A stretch of DNA of 64,000 bases from an uncultured Pseudomonadales bacterium (GTDB lineage Bacteria > Patescibacteriota > Microgenomatia > UBA1400 > PJMF01), in NCBI GenBank assembly GCA_964511345.1, contig CAZEEV010000001.1:220342-284341 (forward strand), read 5' to 3'. Every line of letters starts with the position of its first letter. The first letter of the stretch is position 1. Shown piece by piece: positions 20,453 to 61,649 of this stretch. Both the position numbers and the translations under genes were made by a program. The notes beneath the pieces were generated by a model. That model did no database searches. It was given only the letters and a program-made list of their open reading frames with translations, and was not told where the DNA came from.

Positions 20453-20458
20453 ATGCTG

Positions 20459-20531
20459 AGCCAAAGGTGGGAATCGAACCCACGACCGACGGTTTACGAT
20501 ACCGTTGCTCTACCAACTGAGCTACTTTGGC
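20459..20531 (-). tRNA. tRNA-Thr (anticodon CGU)
   Basis: Hand-folded cloverleaf: acceptor GCCAAAG/CTTTGGC, D arm GCTC..GAGC, anticodon loop AUCGUAA, T arm GTGGG-TTCGATT-CCCAC. CCA is not encoded. Confidence 0.85.
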
Positions 20532-20547
20532 ACCTAGATTCTATCAC

Positions 20548-20715
20548 TTAATTGCTCTTGCTACGCAAGATTAATCATCTGAGCGACCGAAGGGAGTCCA
20601 CTCTTCGAATACTAGGAGGGTGCTAGTCGCACTCTCCGTCGGAACCCTCTTTTCAGCTTTTTCTTTCACTCGCTCTTTCACATGATTGCTCTTGCTGCGC
20701 AAGAGTAATCATGTG
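20548..20715 (-). repeat. tRNA-Gly-associated repeat unit. It comprises a degenerate copy of the tRNA-Gly(CCC) T-arm/acceptor 3' segment carrying a 43-nt GC-rich insert, flanked by two copies of a roughly 30-bp hairpin-forming direct repeat.
   Basis: Minus strand ...GAGGGUUC[CGACGGAGAGUGCGACUAGCACCCUCCUAGUAUUCGAAGAGUG]GACUCCCUUCGGUCGCUCA; the authentic tRNA has GAGGGUUCGACUCCCUUCGGUCGCUCA. The direct repeats attgctcttgctacgcaagattaatcatctgagcgaccgaagggagtc (about 20548-20598) and attgctcttgctgcgcaagagtaatcatgtgagcgaccgaagggagtc (about 20686-20733) each form a long imperfect hairpin. Confidence 0.6.
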
Positions 20716-20786
20716 AGCGACCGAAGGGAGTCGAACCCTCACCTCAAACTTGGGAAGTTCGTATTCTACCGCTGAACTACGGTCGC
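20716..20786 (-). tRNA. tRNA-Gly (anticodon CCC)
   Basis: Acceptor GCGACCG/CGGTCGC, anticodon loop UUCCCAA, T arm GAGGG-TTCGACT-CCCTT, discriminator U. Confidence 0.85.
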
Positions 20787-20833
20787 TATTGATAAGTTTA
20801 GGAAGATTATAGCAAACTTTAAATACTTTAAAA

Positions 20834-21058
20834 TCAAGTGCTAGAAGATTCTTTTTTTGAAATCAGAGCTCTAATGGCAATTACTTGTAGATTTGTTTCT
20901 AGAGCTTCATCACTTAATCCACCTGCTAACTGTATTGAGTTAATTATTTCTCTTAATTCGTCTAGTGTTTTATTTCCAAAATTTTCTGATTCTTCAGTTA
21001 CTCTTTCTTTATAAGCTTTTTCAAGATATTCATCAGTTATAACCATGTTTTCCAGCAT
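20834..21058 (-). CDS. Hypothetical small acidic protein (74 aa)
   Basis: An ORF with a plausible upstream AT-rich promoter region and no recognisable motif. Confidence 0.3.
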   Translation of the reverse strand: MLENMVITDEYLEKAYKERVTEESENFGNKTLDELREIINSIQLAGGLSDEALETNLQVIAIRALISKKESSST

Positions 21059-21209
21059 TTGTGTCCTTTATTTAGTTTGGTTAACTATATATTAGTCTAT
21101 CAAACATATAAAAAATTACAATTATAAGTAATAAAAATACTAAAATTAATATTTTTATAAAGCTACTTGAATTGTTTTTGTCATAAACACAAAGTAGAAT
21201 TATGATGAG

Positions 21210-22115
21210 ATGGTGAAGTTACAATATTCTGAAAGAAAAAAAGGAATCGTAGCTCTTTTTGTATTAGTAATAATTTGGGGTATCCTTCCAATTATTCCAA
21301 GATTTTTAAGTATTGATTTTAAATTGTTTCAACAAGTCTATCTTCGCATGTCGATCGGCCTTATTTTGTCTTTGCTTATATTTTCAAAAAATATAAATCT
21401 TAAAAAAATAATACTAACACCAAAAAAAGATTTATTTTTAATTCTTTTTAGAGCTACTTTTTATTATCTAGTAGGAGTTGTTTTGAATACTCAAGCACTT
21501 CTGCTAACTAAAATCAGCAACGTCACTCTTATTGGGGCTCTACCCATCACCTCATTATTAGGTTTCATTGTTCTCAAAGAAAAGTTTTCAGTAAAAAAAT
21601 TTATATTAGTTTGCTTAGCATTTTTCGGAGTTTTAATTGTATCAATAAATAATTTTTCAAATTTTTCTTTTGGATACGGAGAATTGCTTGCCTTACTTTC
21701 TTCATTATGTATATCGCTAGCTCTAATATCTAGAAAATGGCAATCTAAATTTCTCAATGATCAAGAAACAACAATTCTAATTCTTTCAATTTCCGCTGTT
21801 GAAATTTTCTTCGCTTCAATAATTAAAGGAGAGGGCATTCCAAACACTACTTGGAGTTTTAGTATTGTTGGTTTTCTAGTTTTAGGTGGAATTTTAAATG
21901 CTGGAACAAGTTTCTTTTCAAATTATGGTTTTGCTCGTGTTGATGCAGTTTTAAGTGGAAATATATTGATGCTTGAACCTATTCTTGCTTCAATATTTGC
22001 TTTCATTATTTTTAATGAAATCCCAGTTCCCAAAGAAATCTTTGGAGGGATAATTATACTTTTCAGCGTTATTATGATGAATCGCATAGAAAACAAGCAA
22101 TTAAAAAATGCCTAA
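21210..22115 (+). CDS. EamA/DMT-family transporter (10 TM)
   Basis: 301 aa with two 5-TM halves typical of drug/metabolite transporter (EamA) repeats. Confidence 0.7.
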   Translation: MVKLQYSERKKGIVALFVLVIIWGILPIIPRFLSIDFKLFQQVYLRMSIGLILSLLIFSKNINLKKIILTPKKDLFLILFRATFYYLVGVVLNTQALLLTKISNVTLIGALPITSLLGFIVLKEKFSVKKFILVCLAFFGVLIVSINNFSNFSFGYGELLALLSSLCISLALISRKWQSKFLNDQETTILILSISAVEIFFASIIKGEGIPNTTWSFSIVGFLVLGGILNAGTSFFSNYGFARVDAVLSGNILMLEPILASIFAFIIFNEIPVPKEIFGGIIILFSVIMMNRIENKQLKNA

Positions 22116-22195
22116 TCGGGATCACCCTGCGGGTACTAGTCTGGCGCTTCGTAATTTAAAACATCAGTGCTCGCCATACGGCGCGAACATGGCTA
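22113..22195 (-). repeat. tRNA-Asp-associated repeat unit (partial tRNA-Asp T-arm copy plus a GC-rich insert)
   Basis: Minus strand ...CCAUGUUC[GCGCCGUAUGGCGAGCACUGAUGUUUUAAAUUACGAAGCGCCAGACUAGUACCCGCAGGGU]GAUCCCGAUUAGG, against authentic GGUUCGAUCCCGAUCGAGG. It shares ACGAAGCGC, CUAGU and CCCGCAGGG with the other units. Confidence 0.5.
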
Positions 22196-22218
22196 GATCT
22201 CTCAATGAGTTCTTAAAA

Positions 22219-22252
22219 TAAAAAATCCAGACCTTAGTCTGGAATTTTTATT
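22219..22252. terminator. Bidirectional intrinsic terminator between the EamA gene and tRNA-Asp
   Basis: aaaaaatCCAGACcttaGTCTGGaattttta: a 6-bp GC-containing stem flanked by an A-run and a T-run. Confidence 0.6.
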
Positions 22253-22255
22253 TTG

Positions 22256-44324: not shown

Positions 44325-44425
44325 ACCAAAATTATAACTTGAATAGCAAGGGAGTGCAAATAGGGTAAAGTAAAAAAATATTGCTTGACACCGGAGGCTT
44401 AAAAAAGTAGATTCTTTAGCTAAAT

Positions 44426-45079
44426 ATGTCCCAAGAATTTCTGCAGGTTTTATCGGTTAATAACCAAAAAATCATTAAAAAACTTAACACTCCGGAACTA
44501 GTCCAAGATTTTGTCGATCAAAAAGTTATTTACGATACAAAGCGTGAAGACCGAACTATCGAAGAAATCCTAAATGACGGGCGGGGTGAATGTTATGGTG
44601 GAGCTTTACTTGCTGCCACTTGCTTAATGGTGGCTAATCTTGAGGTTTTCTTAGTTAGAATTGAAGCCAGAGGAGGAGATGAGGAACACATTCTTTGCGT
44701 ATATAAACAAAACAACTATTTTGGTTCAATCGCTCAAAGTAAATTTTTGGGCTTAAAAGACAGAAAACCAATTTATAAAACCATTAGAGATTTAGTAGTT
44801 AGTTATCAAGAATTTTATTTTGGTTTTGATGGCAGGTACACTCTCTTGTCTTTTCATCAACCACTAAATCTTAAAAAATACCAATTTACTTGGCTTAGTC
44901 AAAGAGAAAGTGTTTTGCAAATAGCCAAAGATTTAATCTCCGCCCCAATTGAAGAAATTGCTAAATTAGATGATCCTTATTTTCTAGTAAATCCCAAACG
45001 CTACTGGAACGAAATTCTCTACATTCCTGAGTGGGCAAAAATTCCAGAAAGTTATTTACGAGTAAAAAAAGACGCATAA
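44426..45079 (+). CDS. Hypothetical protein with conserved Cys/His (possible papain-fold or transglutaminase-like peptidase)
   Basis: 217 aa. GECYGGALLAATCL then ...EEHILCVY... places a Cys ahead of a His as in papain-like folds. Followed by a terminator aaaaagacgcataattgcgtcttttt. Confidence 0.3.
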   Translation: MSQEFLQVLSVNNQKIIKKLNTPELVQDFVDQKVIYDTKREDRTIEEILNDGRGECYGGALLAATCLMVANLEVFLVRIEARGGDEEHILCVYKQNNYFGSIAQSKFLGLKDRKPIYKTIRDLVVSYQEFYFGFDGRYTLLSFHQPLNLKKYQFTWLSQRESVLQIAKDLISAPIEEIAKLDDPYFLVNPKRYWNEILYIPEWAKIPESYLRVKKDA

Positions 45080-45098
45080 TTGCGTCTTTTTCTTATAT

Positions 45099-45195
45099 GT
45101 GAGTCCGGTGGAGCTCCACTCTTCGAGTGCTAGTCACGCGCTTCGTAAATAAAAGGCACTCAAAAATTCAATCTCGCTTGACGGTGGAACCCATA
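45099..45195 (-). repeat. tRNA-Lys-associated repeat unit (partial tRNA-Lys 3' copy plus an insert)
   Basis: Minus strand ...AUGGGUUC[CACCGUCAAGCGAGAUUGAAUUUUUGAGUGCCUUUUAUUUACGAAGCGCGUGACUAGCACUCGAAGAGUG]GAGCUCCACCGGACUCA, against authentic GUGGGUUCGAGUCCCACCGGACUCA. Confidence 0.6.
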
Positions 45196-45264
45196 TATTT
45201 GGCTTTTCATCTATACCGGCTCCATTTATAAAAAAACACGCTTACAGCGTGATTTTTTATAAAG

Positions 45265-45338
45265 TGAGTCCGGTGGGACTCGAACCCACGACGCACAGCT
45301 TAAAAGGCTGTCGCTCTAACCGACTGAGCTACGGACCC
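45265..45338 (-). tRNA. tRNA-Lys (anticodon UUU)
   Basis: Acceptor GGGTCCG/CGGACTC, anticodon loop CUUUUAA, T arm GTGGG-TTCGAGT-CCCAC, discriminator A. A terminator hairpin (cacgctgtaagcgtg + U-run) follows at 45231-45260. Confidence 0.85.
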
Positions 45339-61345: not shown

Positions 61346-61417
61346 GGCCCCATCGTCTAGTGGTTAGGACATCGGGTTTTCATCCCGGTAACTGGGGTCC
61401 GATTCCCCATGGGGTCA
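61346..61417 (+). tRNA. tRNA-Glu (anticodon UUC)
   Basis: Acceptor GGCCCCA/TGGGGTC, anticodon loop UUUUCAU, T arm TGGGG-TCCGATT-CCCCA, discriminator A. Confidence 0.85.
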
Positions 61418-61423
61418 CAGCGT

Positions 61424-61456
61424 AAAAAAGAGTGGATTTGTCCACTCTTTTTTTTG
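61424..61456 (+). terminator. Intrinsic terminator after tRNA-Glu
   Basis: aaaaaaGAGTGGAtttgTCCACTCtttttttt. Confidence 0.7.
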
Positions 61457-61627
61457 CTTTGAACTCGTAATAGGATCAGCCTTTTTAGGTCCAGACAATT
61501 GAGCTAATAACGCACACGAGCTTAAGCGAGGAGCATTATGTTCAATTATATGAGGAAGCGCGGTGAGAACAAGCAAAATAACTGTAGTGATTAGCGGAAG
61601 TTGTGCTTGTGGAGCGAGCAAGCTCGT

Positions 61628-61649
61628 ATTCCCCATGGGGAGGGTCACA
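61628..61649 (+). repeat. Partial copy of the tRNA-Glu T-arm/3' end within the 5' UTR of the downstream small gene
   Basis: AUUCCCCAUGGGG-AGG-GUCACA, against authentic GAUUCCCCAUGGGGUCACA. It is preceded by the GAGCAAGCUCG hairpin. Confidence 0.5.

Follow-up and report, generated by a model that had tools for sequence, protein, structure and literature searches.

Gene-less inserts with displaced tRNA 3' ends at three tRNA genes of a Patescibacteria genome: candidates for very small integration footprints

Partial copies of tRNA genes are a standard marker for delimiting integrated elements, and a tRNA 3' end repeated downstream of an intact tRNA gene is regarded as a hallmark of elements integrated in tRNA genes (PMC4383910; PMC9897764); the examples cited here bound islands of 9-23 kb. 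Integrases targeting the T-loop are known, e.g., that of mycobacteriophage Ms6 (PMC1762012). CIMEs are flanked by att sites and lack recombination and transfer genes; arriving elements use an att site that is already occupied and thereby form tandem arrays (ICESt1/ICESt3-type; PMC5704250). In tycheposons of Prochlorococcus islands, successive integrations at one tRNA gene are accompanied by partial tRNA copies between them (bioRxiv 10.1101/2020.12.28.424599).

We have analyzed a 64-kb stretch of DNA from a small Patescibacteria genome (hereafter, the window), in which the same signature bounds gene-less inserts of approximately 0.15 kb at three of the seven tRNA genes, with presence or absence among close relatives. 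To judge from their sequences, these elements are probably a very small form of the familiar footprint of integration in tRNA genes.

Layout of the region between tRNA-Gly and tRNA-Thr

Since tRNA-Gly and tRNA-Thr are both on the minus strand, the order of transcription is tRNA-Gly, spacer and tRNA-Thr, and the features are listed in this order.

20715-20786, minus strand: intact tRNA-Gly(CCC), found by ARAGORN and scored at 64.6 bits by the Rfam tRNA model
20674-20732, minus strand: repeat copy adjoining the intact tRNA-Gly (attL-like side), composed of the tRNA 3' end from G57 of the T-loop and a 41-nt flank
20678-20716: hairpin H1, a near-perfect palindrome of 17-18 bp beginning in the last bases of tRNA-Gly
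20599-20673, minus strand: insert body of 75 nt between the repeat copies
about 20667-20675: acceptor-like 5' segment GAGCGAG of the body
20641-20647: GGGTTCC in the body
20615-20637: middle hairpin GGAGGGTG/CACTCTCC of 8-9 bp
20599-20608: right-end block of the body, ending in TCGAAGAGTG
20580-20598, minus strand: displaced tRNA-Gly 3' end on the attR-like side, with the same 19 nt as 20714-20732
20544-20582: hairpin H2, a decayed copy of H1 with 35 of 41 flank positions identical and changes that break pairs
20532-20554, minus strand: remnant of the native spacer, CAATTAAGTGATAGAATCTAGGT, which aligns with the short spacers of two relatives (L047 and L048)
20458-20531, minus strand: tRNA-Thr(CGT), found by ARAGORN and Rfam, the conserved downstream neighbour of tRNA-Gly in the lineage

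The direct repeat is 59 nt long and 90% identical between its copies (20540-20598 and 20674-20732), and the spacing of 134 nt agrees well with an earlier note, which had described a segment of roughly 50 bp, including the tRNA-Gly tail, present twice about 135 bp apart. Its exact core is 19 nt (20580-20598 and 20714-20732), 18 of which are within tRNA-Gly; on the tRNA strand, this core is GACTCCCTTCGGTCGCTCA and starts after the TTC of the T-loop. The genomic attR side continues into GATGATTAATC. The repeat and the hairpins of the note are real, but a head-to-tail tandem unit is not present: Tandem Repeats Finder reported nothing, and only 59 of the 134 nt are repeated, the other 75 nt being unrelated. 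We do not regard the structure as a tandem duplication because the 75 nt between the copies are foreign and recur at other tRNA genes. The 18-mer of the tRNA tail had no second-site match elsewhere in the window (chance expectation, 0.01), nor had the 25-nt hairpin pattern (chance expectation, 0.00). Local alignments of the 75-nt body with the 5' part of tRNA-Gly were no better than those of shuffled sequences, and the spacer contains no convincing gene, the overlapping ORFs being all of chance size (43 aa or less). An independent Logan assembly (SRR8925774; L001) is identical over the aligned region from tRNA-Gly to tRNA-Thr, so that the suspicion of an assembly artefact was not borne out.

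H1 folds with -23.1 kcal/mol on the minus strand and -27.2 kcal/mol on the plus strand (z = -7.0 and -8.9), and none of 200 shuffled sequences was equally stable. The stem of H2 consists of 6+5+3 pairs with internal loops between them (-11.9 and -7.5 kcal/mol; z = -3.4 and -2.4); both folding and direct reading of the sequence indicate that its differences from H1 are pairs lost without compensatory change. A long hairpin in each flank had been claimed; H2 is far weaker than stated. Neither H1 nor H2 has the stem followed by a U-tract of an intrinsic terminator; H1 has no U-tract, as had been noticed previously, and gave no terminator call. The middle hairpin proposed between the copies is present (z about -3.8). 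The whole 183-nt spacer has z = -4.6 (minus strand) and -6.35 (plus strand) against shuffled sequences, and the excess of structure that the folding comparison was meant to check is real.

The gap from tRNA-Gly to tRNA-Thr is only 12-97 nt in approximately 17 related Patescibacteria loci, in none of which the repeat or the palindrome was found. Relatives with an alanine racemase (Alr) 80-82% identical to that in the window have a gap of 12-28 nt and no hairpin. The Gly insert is lineage-specific; at this locus, only empty sites were found among relatives, and in the window the native spacer remnant comes after the displaced fragment and H2. One relative (L049) has a 2.4-kb insert of three genes between tRNA-Gly and tRNA-Thr. 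Contigs of some relatives break in or at tRNA-Thr. Synteny of alanine racemase in species-representative genomes was uninformative (the best matches were approximately 50% identical, with no nearby tRNAs), and relatives have the EamA gene in other contexts.

Related elements at tRNA-Lys and tRNA-Glu

The other two sites in the window are as follows.

45264-45338, minus strand: tRNA-Lys(TTT), second site of the family
45099-45263, minus strand: tRNA-Lys element of 165 nt, composed of hairpin T1, body and displaced tRNA-Lys 3' fragment
45225-45263: terminator hairpin T1
45186-45192: GGGTTCC in the Lys body
before the displaced fragment, in the Lys body: block GACTAGCAC-TCGAAGAGTG
45099-45118: displaced tRNA-Lys 3' fragment, 13 nt exact
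45059-45098: terminator hairpin T2, after the displaced fragment
44350-44369, minus strand: native downstream flank of tRNA-Lys, TTTACCCTATTTGCACTCCC, approximately 0.9 kb away and past a 217-aa gene (44426-45079)
61346-61418, plus strand: tRNA-Glu(TTC), third site of the family
61419-61648, plus strand: tRNA-Glu element of 230 nt, composed of terminator hairpin, body and displaced tRNA-Glu fragment
61424-61455: terminator hairpin of the Glu element, a terminator as judged by eye, which looks bidirectional
61628-61648: displaced tRNA-Glu 3' fragment, 13 nt exact

The tRNA-Gly, tRNA-Lys and tRNA-Glu sites have a common layout of intact tRNA, hairpin, body and displaced tRNA 3' fragment; at each of them, an intact tRNA gene and a displaced 3' copy in direct orientation bound the insert, which is the arrangement of integrative elements. 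The 12-mer TCGAAGAGTGGA occurs just twice in the 64 kb, each time abutting a displaced tRNA fragment, and the similarity between the Gly and Lys bodies was reached by none of 3000 shuffles. A stretch of the Glu body (61495-61569) is approximately 80% identical to the tRNA-Lys element of related species, and a profile of the elements recovered the tRNA-Glu copy with nhmmer (E = 9e-8). Of the motifs that recur in the bodies, the clearest is a block directly next to the displaced fragment, which reads AGCAC...TCGAAGAGTG or, in further members of the family, AGCAMGCTC(A)GT. The 75-nt Gly body is a member of a dispersed family with copies at tRNA-Lys and tRNA-Glu. When 87 tRNAs in 71 sequences were searched for downstream 3' fragments, these were found only at the Gly, Lys and Glu sites, at tRNA-Lys of relatives and at one unrelated locus. 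The end hairpins of the Gly, Lys and Glu copies are unrelated to each other, and the flanking repeats are 19-59, 13 and 13 nt, respectively. Neither ARAGORN nor the Rfam tRNA model (E up to 1 or 10) recognised any module, their only matches being the intact tRNAs; with Rfam 15 at permissive thresholds, only tRNA reached the gathering threshold at the three loci, others being far below.

Empty sites and native flanks were directly observed for the tRNA-Lys family. In empty-site relatives, the native flank TTTACCCTATTTGCACTCCC directly adjoins tRNA-Lys. Among contigs encoding identical EF-P, four have an empty tRNA-Lys site (tRNA...GGACTCAC|TTTACCCC...) and four have an occupied one, with an insert of 169-172 nt composed of hairpin, body and fragment; the TTTACCCC flank resumes right after the displaced fragment, which is the attL/attR geometry. 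The occupied sites were drawn from four sources (JGI, Logan, ENA and NCBI), and the tRNA-Lys element of the window is identical in two Logan assemblies. In efp nucleotide sequence, the window is 97.2% identical to the clade with empty sites, versus 93.2% to the occupied clade, and the distribution of the tRNA-Lys element is patchy.

T1 and T2 both have the features of intrinsic terminators and look bidirectional. T2 resembles a hairpin of related species, namely the one with which their element follows intact tRNA-Lys; this is as expected from successive insertions and suggests that T2 may be the trace of an older insertion at tRNA-Lys. In the window and in two relatives (L067 and L056), tRNA-Lys is separated from its native flank by gene cassettes; with such variable cassettes in the flanks of both tRNA-Lys and tRNA-Gly, these neighbourhoods behave as insertion hotspots. 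The 102-aa ORF of L067 had no match in Pfam or PHROGs, and the 74-aa and 217-aa ORFs of the window had no PHROGs match and no Pfam family.

Origin of the elements

On balance, we think that the feature at tRNA-Gly probably represents the two junctions of a 134-bp gene-less insertion into the 3' part of tRNA-Gly(CCC), made by Campbell-type site-specific integration, and the elements as a group are best read as non-coding integrative elements of 134-230 bp, or remnants of them, inserted by site-specific recombination. We prefer this reading because the repeat runs from the T-loop to the tRNA 3' end, in direct orientation and downstream of an intact tRNA; because the Gly insert is lineage-specific, with the same architecture at tRNA-Lys and tRNA-Glu and a series of presence and absence at tRNA-Lys; and because of the patchy distribution, the hotspot neighbourhoods and the match of T2 to the hairpin of a related element. 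A circular form with a tRNA-like att site would recombine with the tRNA gene within the common 13-19 nt, and integration would regenerate the tRNA gene and leave the displaced fragment; with each copy, a new hairpin or terminator comes to lie immediately behind the tRNA so regenerated. In the tRNA direction, the 134-bp insert would be composed of the replacement tRNA 3' end (19 nt from G57), H1 and the 75-nt body; the last 18 nt of the intact tRNA-Gly(CCC) would be supplied by the insert, and the original 3' end would have been pushed downstream as the second repeat copy, followed by the older H2 and then the native spacer remnant. The predicted attP-type junction of the circle is ...TCGAAGAGTG|GACTCCCTTCGGTCGCTCA|CATGATTACTCTTGC, in which the right end of the body is joined to the H1 flank, and the predicted attB-type junction of the empty site is ...GAGGGTTC|GACTCCCTTCGGTCGCTCA|GATGATTAATCTTGC. 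An integrase acting in trans, which would be a tyrosine integrase encoded elsewhere, was probably responsible. The copies may be complete miniature elements, or larger elements after internal deletion, and repeated insertions would stack at the same tRNA.

Several findings count against this reading. A search of the 59 window ORFs of 90 aa or more, and of the elements themselves, revealed neither an integrase nor a transposase nor any other recombinase. Because the elements carry neither a recombinase gene nor any other convincing gene, they are not classed as autonomous islands. Scans and blastn searches of viral contigs and phage records with the hairpin, body and junctions found no full-length relative with the same end block, and a viral-contig scan for the 19-mer tail matched only the unrelated dispersed repeat GGATCCTTCGACTCCCTTCGGTCGCTCAGGATGACAG, which is not an att site. 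One viral contig with this repeat is G+C-rich and encodes a tape-measure-like protein. The size of 134-230 bp is at or below that of known attP regions, and such a circle would be mechanically awkward. A full T-loop overlap of 7 bp is not common to the copies, since the identity block starts in the middle of the T-loop (Gly) or later (Lys and Glu). At the start of the Gly and Lys bodies, the 5' acceptor strand of the cognate tRNA recurs in degenerate form; such a copy is not known from ordinary attP sites, and it would also fit an origin by tRNA duplication. Empty sites could be produced by deletion between the direct repeats of 13-19 nt instead of enzymatic excision. It is a tentative extension of the insertion reading that the elements are complete and now mobile gene-less mini-integrative elements of 130-230 bp, each having a circularly permuted and degenerate tRNA-like att site and a terminator hairpin, mobilised in trans by the integrase of another locus or of a phage, retargeting between tRNA species, and residing on a sizeable share of the tRNAs of this lineage, as on three of seven in the window.

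A purely local origin, in which a tRNA and its trailer were tandem-duplicated, the downstream copy lost its D and anticodon arms and was expanded in the T-loop, and empty sites arose by deletion, is in our opinion unlikely, although several observations speak for it. The segment after the first hairpin of the Gly and Lys elements is complementary to the cognate displaced fragment in an acceptor-stem-like manner, the cognate duplex energies being -15.8, -12.9 and -13.6 kcal/mol versus -6 to -8 kcal/mol for non-cognate pairs (0-9 of 2000 shuffles were as good); GAGGGTTC in the Gly body is identical to the T-stem and loop start of tRNA-Gly; and the element is found in the window and in clade B and is missing from clade A, as expected from a single gain with later losses. 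However, the Glu module has no acceptor-like pairing, no body is significantly similar to the 5' half of its own tRNA, and three different tRNA genes would have to be tandem-duplicated and then identically remodelled. Independent decay fails to explain the identical 12-mer, GACTAGCAC and GGGTTCC common to the Gly and Lys modules, as well as the approximately 80% identity of the Glu module in the window with the tRNA-Lys module of another species. A reading of the body as a T-arm with an insertion, together with its likeness to the D-arm of tRNA-Lys, was rejected because the alignments were no better than those of shuffles. Since the copy comprises 18 nt of the tRNA 3' end, an origin from a retroviral-type primer-binding site or cDNA was considered; it was discarded on direct reading, as the copy runs into the genomic trailer (TCA-G/C...) and not into CCA.

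We also give little credence to a functional structured RNA, whether a platform for tRNA-precursor processing or a small RNA mimicking tRNA for tRNA-processing enzymes. The spacer and the elements are far more stable than shuffles (z = -4.6 to -6.9), the modules are predicted to be able to form acceptor-like and T-stem-like helices, and the Lys module could be a transcription unit since terminator-like hairpins bracket it. Against this, the modules are absent from close relatives with the same tRNAs, H2 and a variant in L062 lost pairing without compensation, and scans of the spacer and of the tRNA-Lys region revealed no promoter-like site. In a consensus fold of five copies, the covariation term was +1.33 (positive values are unfavourable) and only the terminator hairpin was robustly common; on the tRNA strand, a 95-nt tRNA-like core did not fold more stably than shuffled sequences (z = -1.6); and no Rfam match reached the gathering score, the tRNA model being blind to the modules. 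The earlier note had suggested a check for an RNase processing platform; a conserved platform is not supported, in view of the lack of the hairpin in the relatives with 80-82% identical Alr, the uncompensated decay of H2 and the lack of an Rfam match. The compact structured spacer between co-oriented tRNAs is real, and the structure at the Gly locus is best read as a by-product of insertion, in which the insert brought a palindrome and a decayed copy of greater age was already present. As for the RNA hairpins, the most likely reading is that of by-products, i.e., terminator or att-arm sequences, rather than a dedicated processing device. A miniature transposon inserted after the TTC of the T-loop, with the tRNA tail as flank (a palindrome-associated IS200/IS605 derivative, or an orphan right end with guide RNA), has in its favour that GGGTTC is on the left and the rest of the T-loop on the right of a stretch of 43-77 nt with a hairpin and a conserved 3' block, and that a conserved scaffold followed by a 13-19-nt target resembles the layout of a right-end guide RNA. 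We consider this very improbable: H1, T1 and the Glu terminator differ completely, so that there are no common transposase-binding ends; the flanking repeats of 13-59 nt are unlike a target duplication of fixed length; TnpA and TnpB are absent from the window; and the inserted unit, as defined by empty versus occupied sites, includes the hairpin and the second tRNA tail and not an insert in the T-loop alone. A CRISPR-transposon or TnpB guide was rejected because the related tRNA-Lys element does not conserve the scaffold and because such genes are absent, and a MITE or IS200-IS605 palindromic element for the lack of conserved ends common to copies and of a fixed target duplication. For an assembly artefact or a chance repeat, only the general risk of metagenome assemblies can be adduced, and the identical sequences in one (Gly) and two (Lys) independent assemblies and the chance expectation of 0.00-0.01 leave this practically negligible.

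Significance and comparison with known systems

If the elements are self-contained units, they are, to our knowledge, about the smallest site-specific integrative elements, and would make recombinase activity and gene flux easier to follow in a phylum whose mobile elements are poorly charted; if they are mere scars, they would be an ordinary record of past integrations. The modules replace the native tRNA trailer, and annotation could mistake them for tRNA fragments, terminators or small RNAs. Their tRNA-tail repeats and long palindromes may break short-read assemblies.

Like tRNA trailers, terminators and processing signals, the elements have a hairpin directly 3' of the tRNA, and T1, T2 and the Glu hairpin are terminator-like; in contrast, H1 has no U-tract, the structure is not conserved in relatives, and a processing signal leaves the repeated tRNA tail and the common body unexplained. 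MITEs, IS200/IS605 palindromic elements and neisserial intergenic mosaic elements (with dRS3 phage att repeats) are short, gene-less, hairpin-rich, dispersed and polymorphic. The present elements differ from such repeats in having neither common terminal inverted repeats nor a fixed target duplication, their ends being specific to the target tRNA. Degenerate remnants, scattered partial tRNAs and streamlined genomes are shared with tycheposons, which are several kb in size with integrases and cargo; this likeness is one of layout.

As in CIMEs, both att-type junctions are kept and genes are absent. Tandem accretion of the CIME type would explain the pairs H1/H2 and T1/T2; H2 and T2 have the appearance of left ends from earlier insertions that now lie behind more recent ones, and searches of viral and phage sequences did not find a parent element. 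The CIMEs known to us are decayed ICEs or IMEs of Firmicutes and kilobases in size, whereas the units described here are approximately 0.15 kb, lie at three tRNAs within 64 kb of Patescibacteria DNA and have a common compact layout, and their cis-mobilization is only putative. Much is also shared with islands and prophages integrated in tRNA or tmRNA genes by tyrosine integrases (Islander-type): the tRNA is regenerated, its 3' fragment is displaced in direct orientation with the native flank behind it, the identity block extends from the T-loop region to the 3' end, and empty sites occur in relatives. The core of Ms6 is 26 bp, whereas the identity block here starts in the middle of the T-loop and does not cover the whole T-arm. 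Unlike the islands, the elements described here are just 134-230 bp, with neither an integrase nor any other gene, and have a body that in part resembles the target tRNA's 5' acceptor strand.

The tRNA-Gly/tRNA-Thr spacer and its relatives

The two tRNA genes that bound the spacer are as follows.

20715-20786, minus strand, tRNA-Gly(CCC)
20458-20531, minus strand, tRNA-Thr(CGT)

In the direction of transcription, tRNA-Gly is followed by a hairpin (H1, 20678-20716), a 75-nt stretch of different sequence, another tRNA-Gly tail, a second hairpin (H2, 20544-20582), a spacer of about 23 nt, tRNA-Thr and the alanine racemase (Alr) gene. The direct repeat (20540-20598 and 20674-20732) is 59 nt long with 90% identity and a spacing of 134 nt; 19 nt of it match exactly (GACTCCCTTCGGTCGCTCA on the tRNA strand), and this core starts after TTC of the T-loop. 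Outside these copies, the window has neither the tRNA-Gly tail nor the hairpin pattern (chance expectation 0.01 and 0.00, respectively).

H1 is a near-perfect palindrome with a predicted fold of -23 to -27 kcal/mol (z = -7 to -9 against shuffles), and H2 is a copy of H1 in decay (z = -2.4 to -3.4), in which substitutions disrupt pairs and are uncompensated. An earlier note had described a long hairpin in the downstream flank of each copy of a tandem duplication; the first of these is very stable and the other is weakened. The middle hairpin was confirmed (z about -3.8), and for the entire spacer the predicted fold is more stable than that of shuffled sequences (z = -4.6 and -6.35). Its sequence is identical in an independent Logan assembly. 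The feature is real, was accurately described and passed both tests that the note had set for its refutation, namely folding against shuffles and comparison with independent assemblies; the agreement of independent assemblies excludes an assembly artefact. The term tandem duplication does not apply: the two copies are separated by 75 nt with no relation to the rest of the unit, and a Tandem Repeats Finder run was empty.

In the spacer (20599-20716), each of the three stems (H1, the middle hairpin and the CGAAGGG/CTCTTCG stem of the fragment junction) forms a G-U pair on the plus strand at the position of an A-C mismatch in the tRNA strand, and the pairing is therefore better in the orientation antisense to the tRNAs. 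This pattern fails in the long hairpin of the tRNA-Glu and tRNA-Lys elements described below.

Genes around the locus are housekeeping ones (murB, truB, signal peptidase, alr, EamA transporter, lemA and htpX), with best protein matches named Microgenomates/Pacebacteria (Patescibacteria), and no integrase, transposase or other recombinase was matched among the 59 window ORFs of at least 90 aa. Metagenomes were scanned for the T-arm of this tRNA-Gly together with its acceptor end, which gave 22 loci. About 17 of the 22 have tRNA-Gly(CCC) directly followed by tRNA-Thr(CGT) with spacers of just 12-97 nt, and none of these about 17 has a repeated tRNA-Gly tail or a palindrome. In the closest loci, whose Alr and downstream Ig-domain protein are 80-82% and 82-90% identical to those of the window, respectively, the spacer is 12 nt (L043, L052-L054) or 26 nt (L048), and L047 and L048 have short spacers to which the final 23 nt of the window spacer can be aligned. 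These short spacers lacking repeat and palindrome, together with the alignable final 23 nt, indicate by sequence comparison that a lineage-specific insertion of about 134-160 nt is present in the window.

Other variation was seen around this tRNA cluster. One related locus (L049, 476-2883) has a 2.4-kb insert with three genes between tRNA-Gly and tRNA-Thr, and no repeated tRNA tail was found in it; the genes encode a 225-aa membrane protein and proteins of 191 and 304 aa with by-eye resemblance to an HD-domain protein and an aldo-keto reductase, respectively. Logan contigs of the closest Alr relatives (L050, L051 and L055; 78-88% identical) stop exactly at or inside tRNA-Thr and do not cover the spacer, including that of the 88% relative; these breaks might themselves come from a repeat or strain variation. 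Two reading frames lie in the tRNA-Asp to tRNA-Gly interval (20787-22254): a 74-aa ORF (20834-21058) and, on the plus strand, the gene for the EamA transporter (21210-22115). In relatives this gap ranges from 158 to 922 nt, EamA homologues occur in unrelated contexts, and no homologue of the 74-aa ORF was found in their tRNA-Asp/tRNA-Gly loci, which suggests another variable insertion within the tRNA cluster.

Members of the family at tRNA-Lys and tRNA-Glu

A search for second copies of tRNA 3' ends, covering all seven tRNAs of the window, found one at tRNA-Lys(TTT), and a profile made from five copies detected a third member behind tRNA-Glu(TTC) (E = 9e-8).

45059-45338, minus strand, tRNA-Lys element: tRNA-Lys(TTT), terminator hairpin T1, body of about 105 nt, displaced tail (13 nt exact), terminator hairpin T2
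61419-61648, plus strand, tRNA-Glu element: terminator hairpin, 172-nt body, displaced tRNA-Glu tail (13 nt exact)

Three of the seven window tRNAs carry a member, with lengths of 134, 165 and 230 nt. The tRNA-Lys copy, identical in two independent assemblies, has the same layout as the tRNA-Gly copy, and the two bodies have in common GGGTTCC, a block ACGrAG.G.G.GACTAGCAC and an identical 12-mer, TCGAAGAGTGGA, which abuts the displaced tail in both and occurs nowhere else in the window. This similarity was attained in none of 3000 shuffles. The displaced tRNA-Glu fragment consists of ATTCCCCATGGGG, an inserted AGG and GTCAC; the Glu body shares about 80% identity with the tRNA-Lys element from another, related species, and one and a half units may be combined in it.

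Among 87 tRNAs in 71 sequences, downstream tail copies were found only at these three sites, at relatives' tRNA-Lys sites and at one unrelated high-GC metagenome locus (L038, 268-590). There, an 82-nt unit, in which the tRNA-Gly(TCC) tail, beginning at the T-loop, is joined by a terminator and an inverted tail copy, is repeated with 98% identity 186 nt apart, and an upstream 103-nt repeat has three overlapping copies with an 86-nt period. This locus is analogous to the element family in form but unrelated in sequence.

Empty and occupied tRNA-Lys sites

Eighteen contigs encode an EF-P identical to that of the window, and 10 of these were read (L061-L070). The tRNA-Lys site is empty in four contigs, where tRNA-Lys...GGACTCAC runs directly into TTTACCCCATTTGCAC and the next gene. 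Four contigs from four sources (JGI, Logan, ENA and NCBI) have an occupied site with an insert of 169-172 nt. In these, tRNA-Lys is followed by a terminator hairpin, the body and CT(C/T)CACCGGACTCAC, after which the TTTACCCC flank continues unchanged. This comparison places the native flank behind the displaced fragment and shows that the hairpin behind the intact tRNA-Lys arrived with the insert. Such attL/attR geometry has been described for elements integrated in tRNA genes (PMC4383910; PMC9897764). Since efp of the window, an occupied one, has higher nucleotide identity to the empty-site clade (97.2%) than to the occupied clade (93.2%), the distribution of the element is patchy. In one contig of the empty-site clade (L067), the left hairpin of the insert is kept, followed by a 102-aa ORF cassette on the opposite strand, and no displaced tRNA-Lys fragment was found.

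44350-44369, native tRNA-Lys flank in the window

A 217-aa gene (44426-45079) is located between T2 and this flank and, therefore, inside inserted DNA. It had no match in a Pfam search, and its distant homologues are named transglutaminase-like. The same interval in a relative (L056) contains TspO, DUF2177, a 216-aa homologue and a glutamate dehydrogenase gene.

Mechanism, alternatives and known systems

Site-specific recombination of the Campbell type is the best-supported reading of the mechanism of insertion. Recombination inside the shared 13-19 nt would join the tRNA gene to a small DNA bearing a tRNA-like att site; the tRNA would be restored with a tail and trailer hairpin new to it, and its former tail would be displaced. 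Tyrosine integrases targeting the T-loop are known (PMC1762012), and we infer a recombinase as the catalyst; the elements and the window contain no recombinase gene, no circle junction was seen, and viral and phage collections yielded no full-length parent element. A dispersed repeat in viral contigs (L023-L027), GGATCCTTCGACTCCCTTCGGTCGCTCAGGATGACAG, has 19 nt in common with the tRNA-Gly tail. It has 1-3 copies per contig, partly inside ORFs, and is not tRNA-related. Each copy may be either a complete miniature element or the remnant of a larger one, and the compact layout shared at three tRNAs argues for the former.

The Gly and Lys bodies begin with a degenerate copy of the cognate 5' acceptor strand, able to pair with the displaced tail, and the insert resembles a tRNA gene that has been gutted and circularly permuted. 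Because the pairing is lost without compensation in a variant (L062) and is absent from the Glu copy, the acceptor-like segment points to ancestry, not to a selected structure. A purely local tandem duplication followed by decay could account for these segments but not for motifs common to different tRNA loci and different species, and we consider it unlikely. Somewhat less probable still is a functional RNA, such as the RNase processing platform considered in the earlier note: the strong predicted folding is in its favor, but the feature is missing from close relatives, its decay is uncompensated, no Rfam match was found, no promoter-like site was found in the spacer or in the scanned tRNA-Lys region, and the covariation term in the consensus fold is unfavorable (+1.33). 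A miniature transposon depending on the hairpins is highly improbable, since the end hairpins are unlike between copies and the flanking repeat varies in length.

T2 resembles the hairpin behind the intact tRNA-Lys in the related element, as would be expected from successive insertions at one tRNA; an accretion model has been presented (PMC5704250), and similar stacking has been reported in Prochlorococcus (bioRxiv 10.1101/2020.12.28.424599). By analogy, H2 is most simply explained as the hairpin of an older, related insertion. The main interest hinges on whether the units remain mobile. The tRNA-Gly feature has a meaning other than that proposed in the earlier note: it is the footprint of an insertion at a tRNA gene, an event of a well-known kind, which is here unusually small, gene-less and recurrent.
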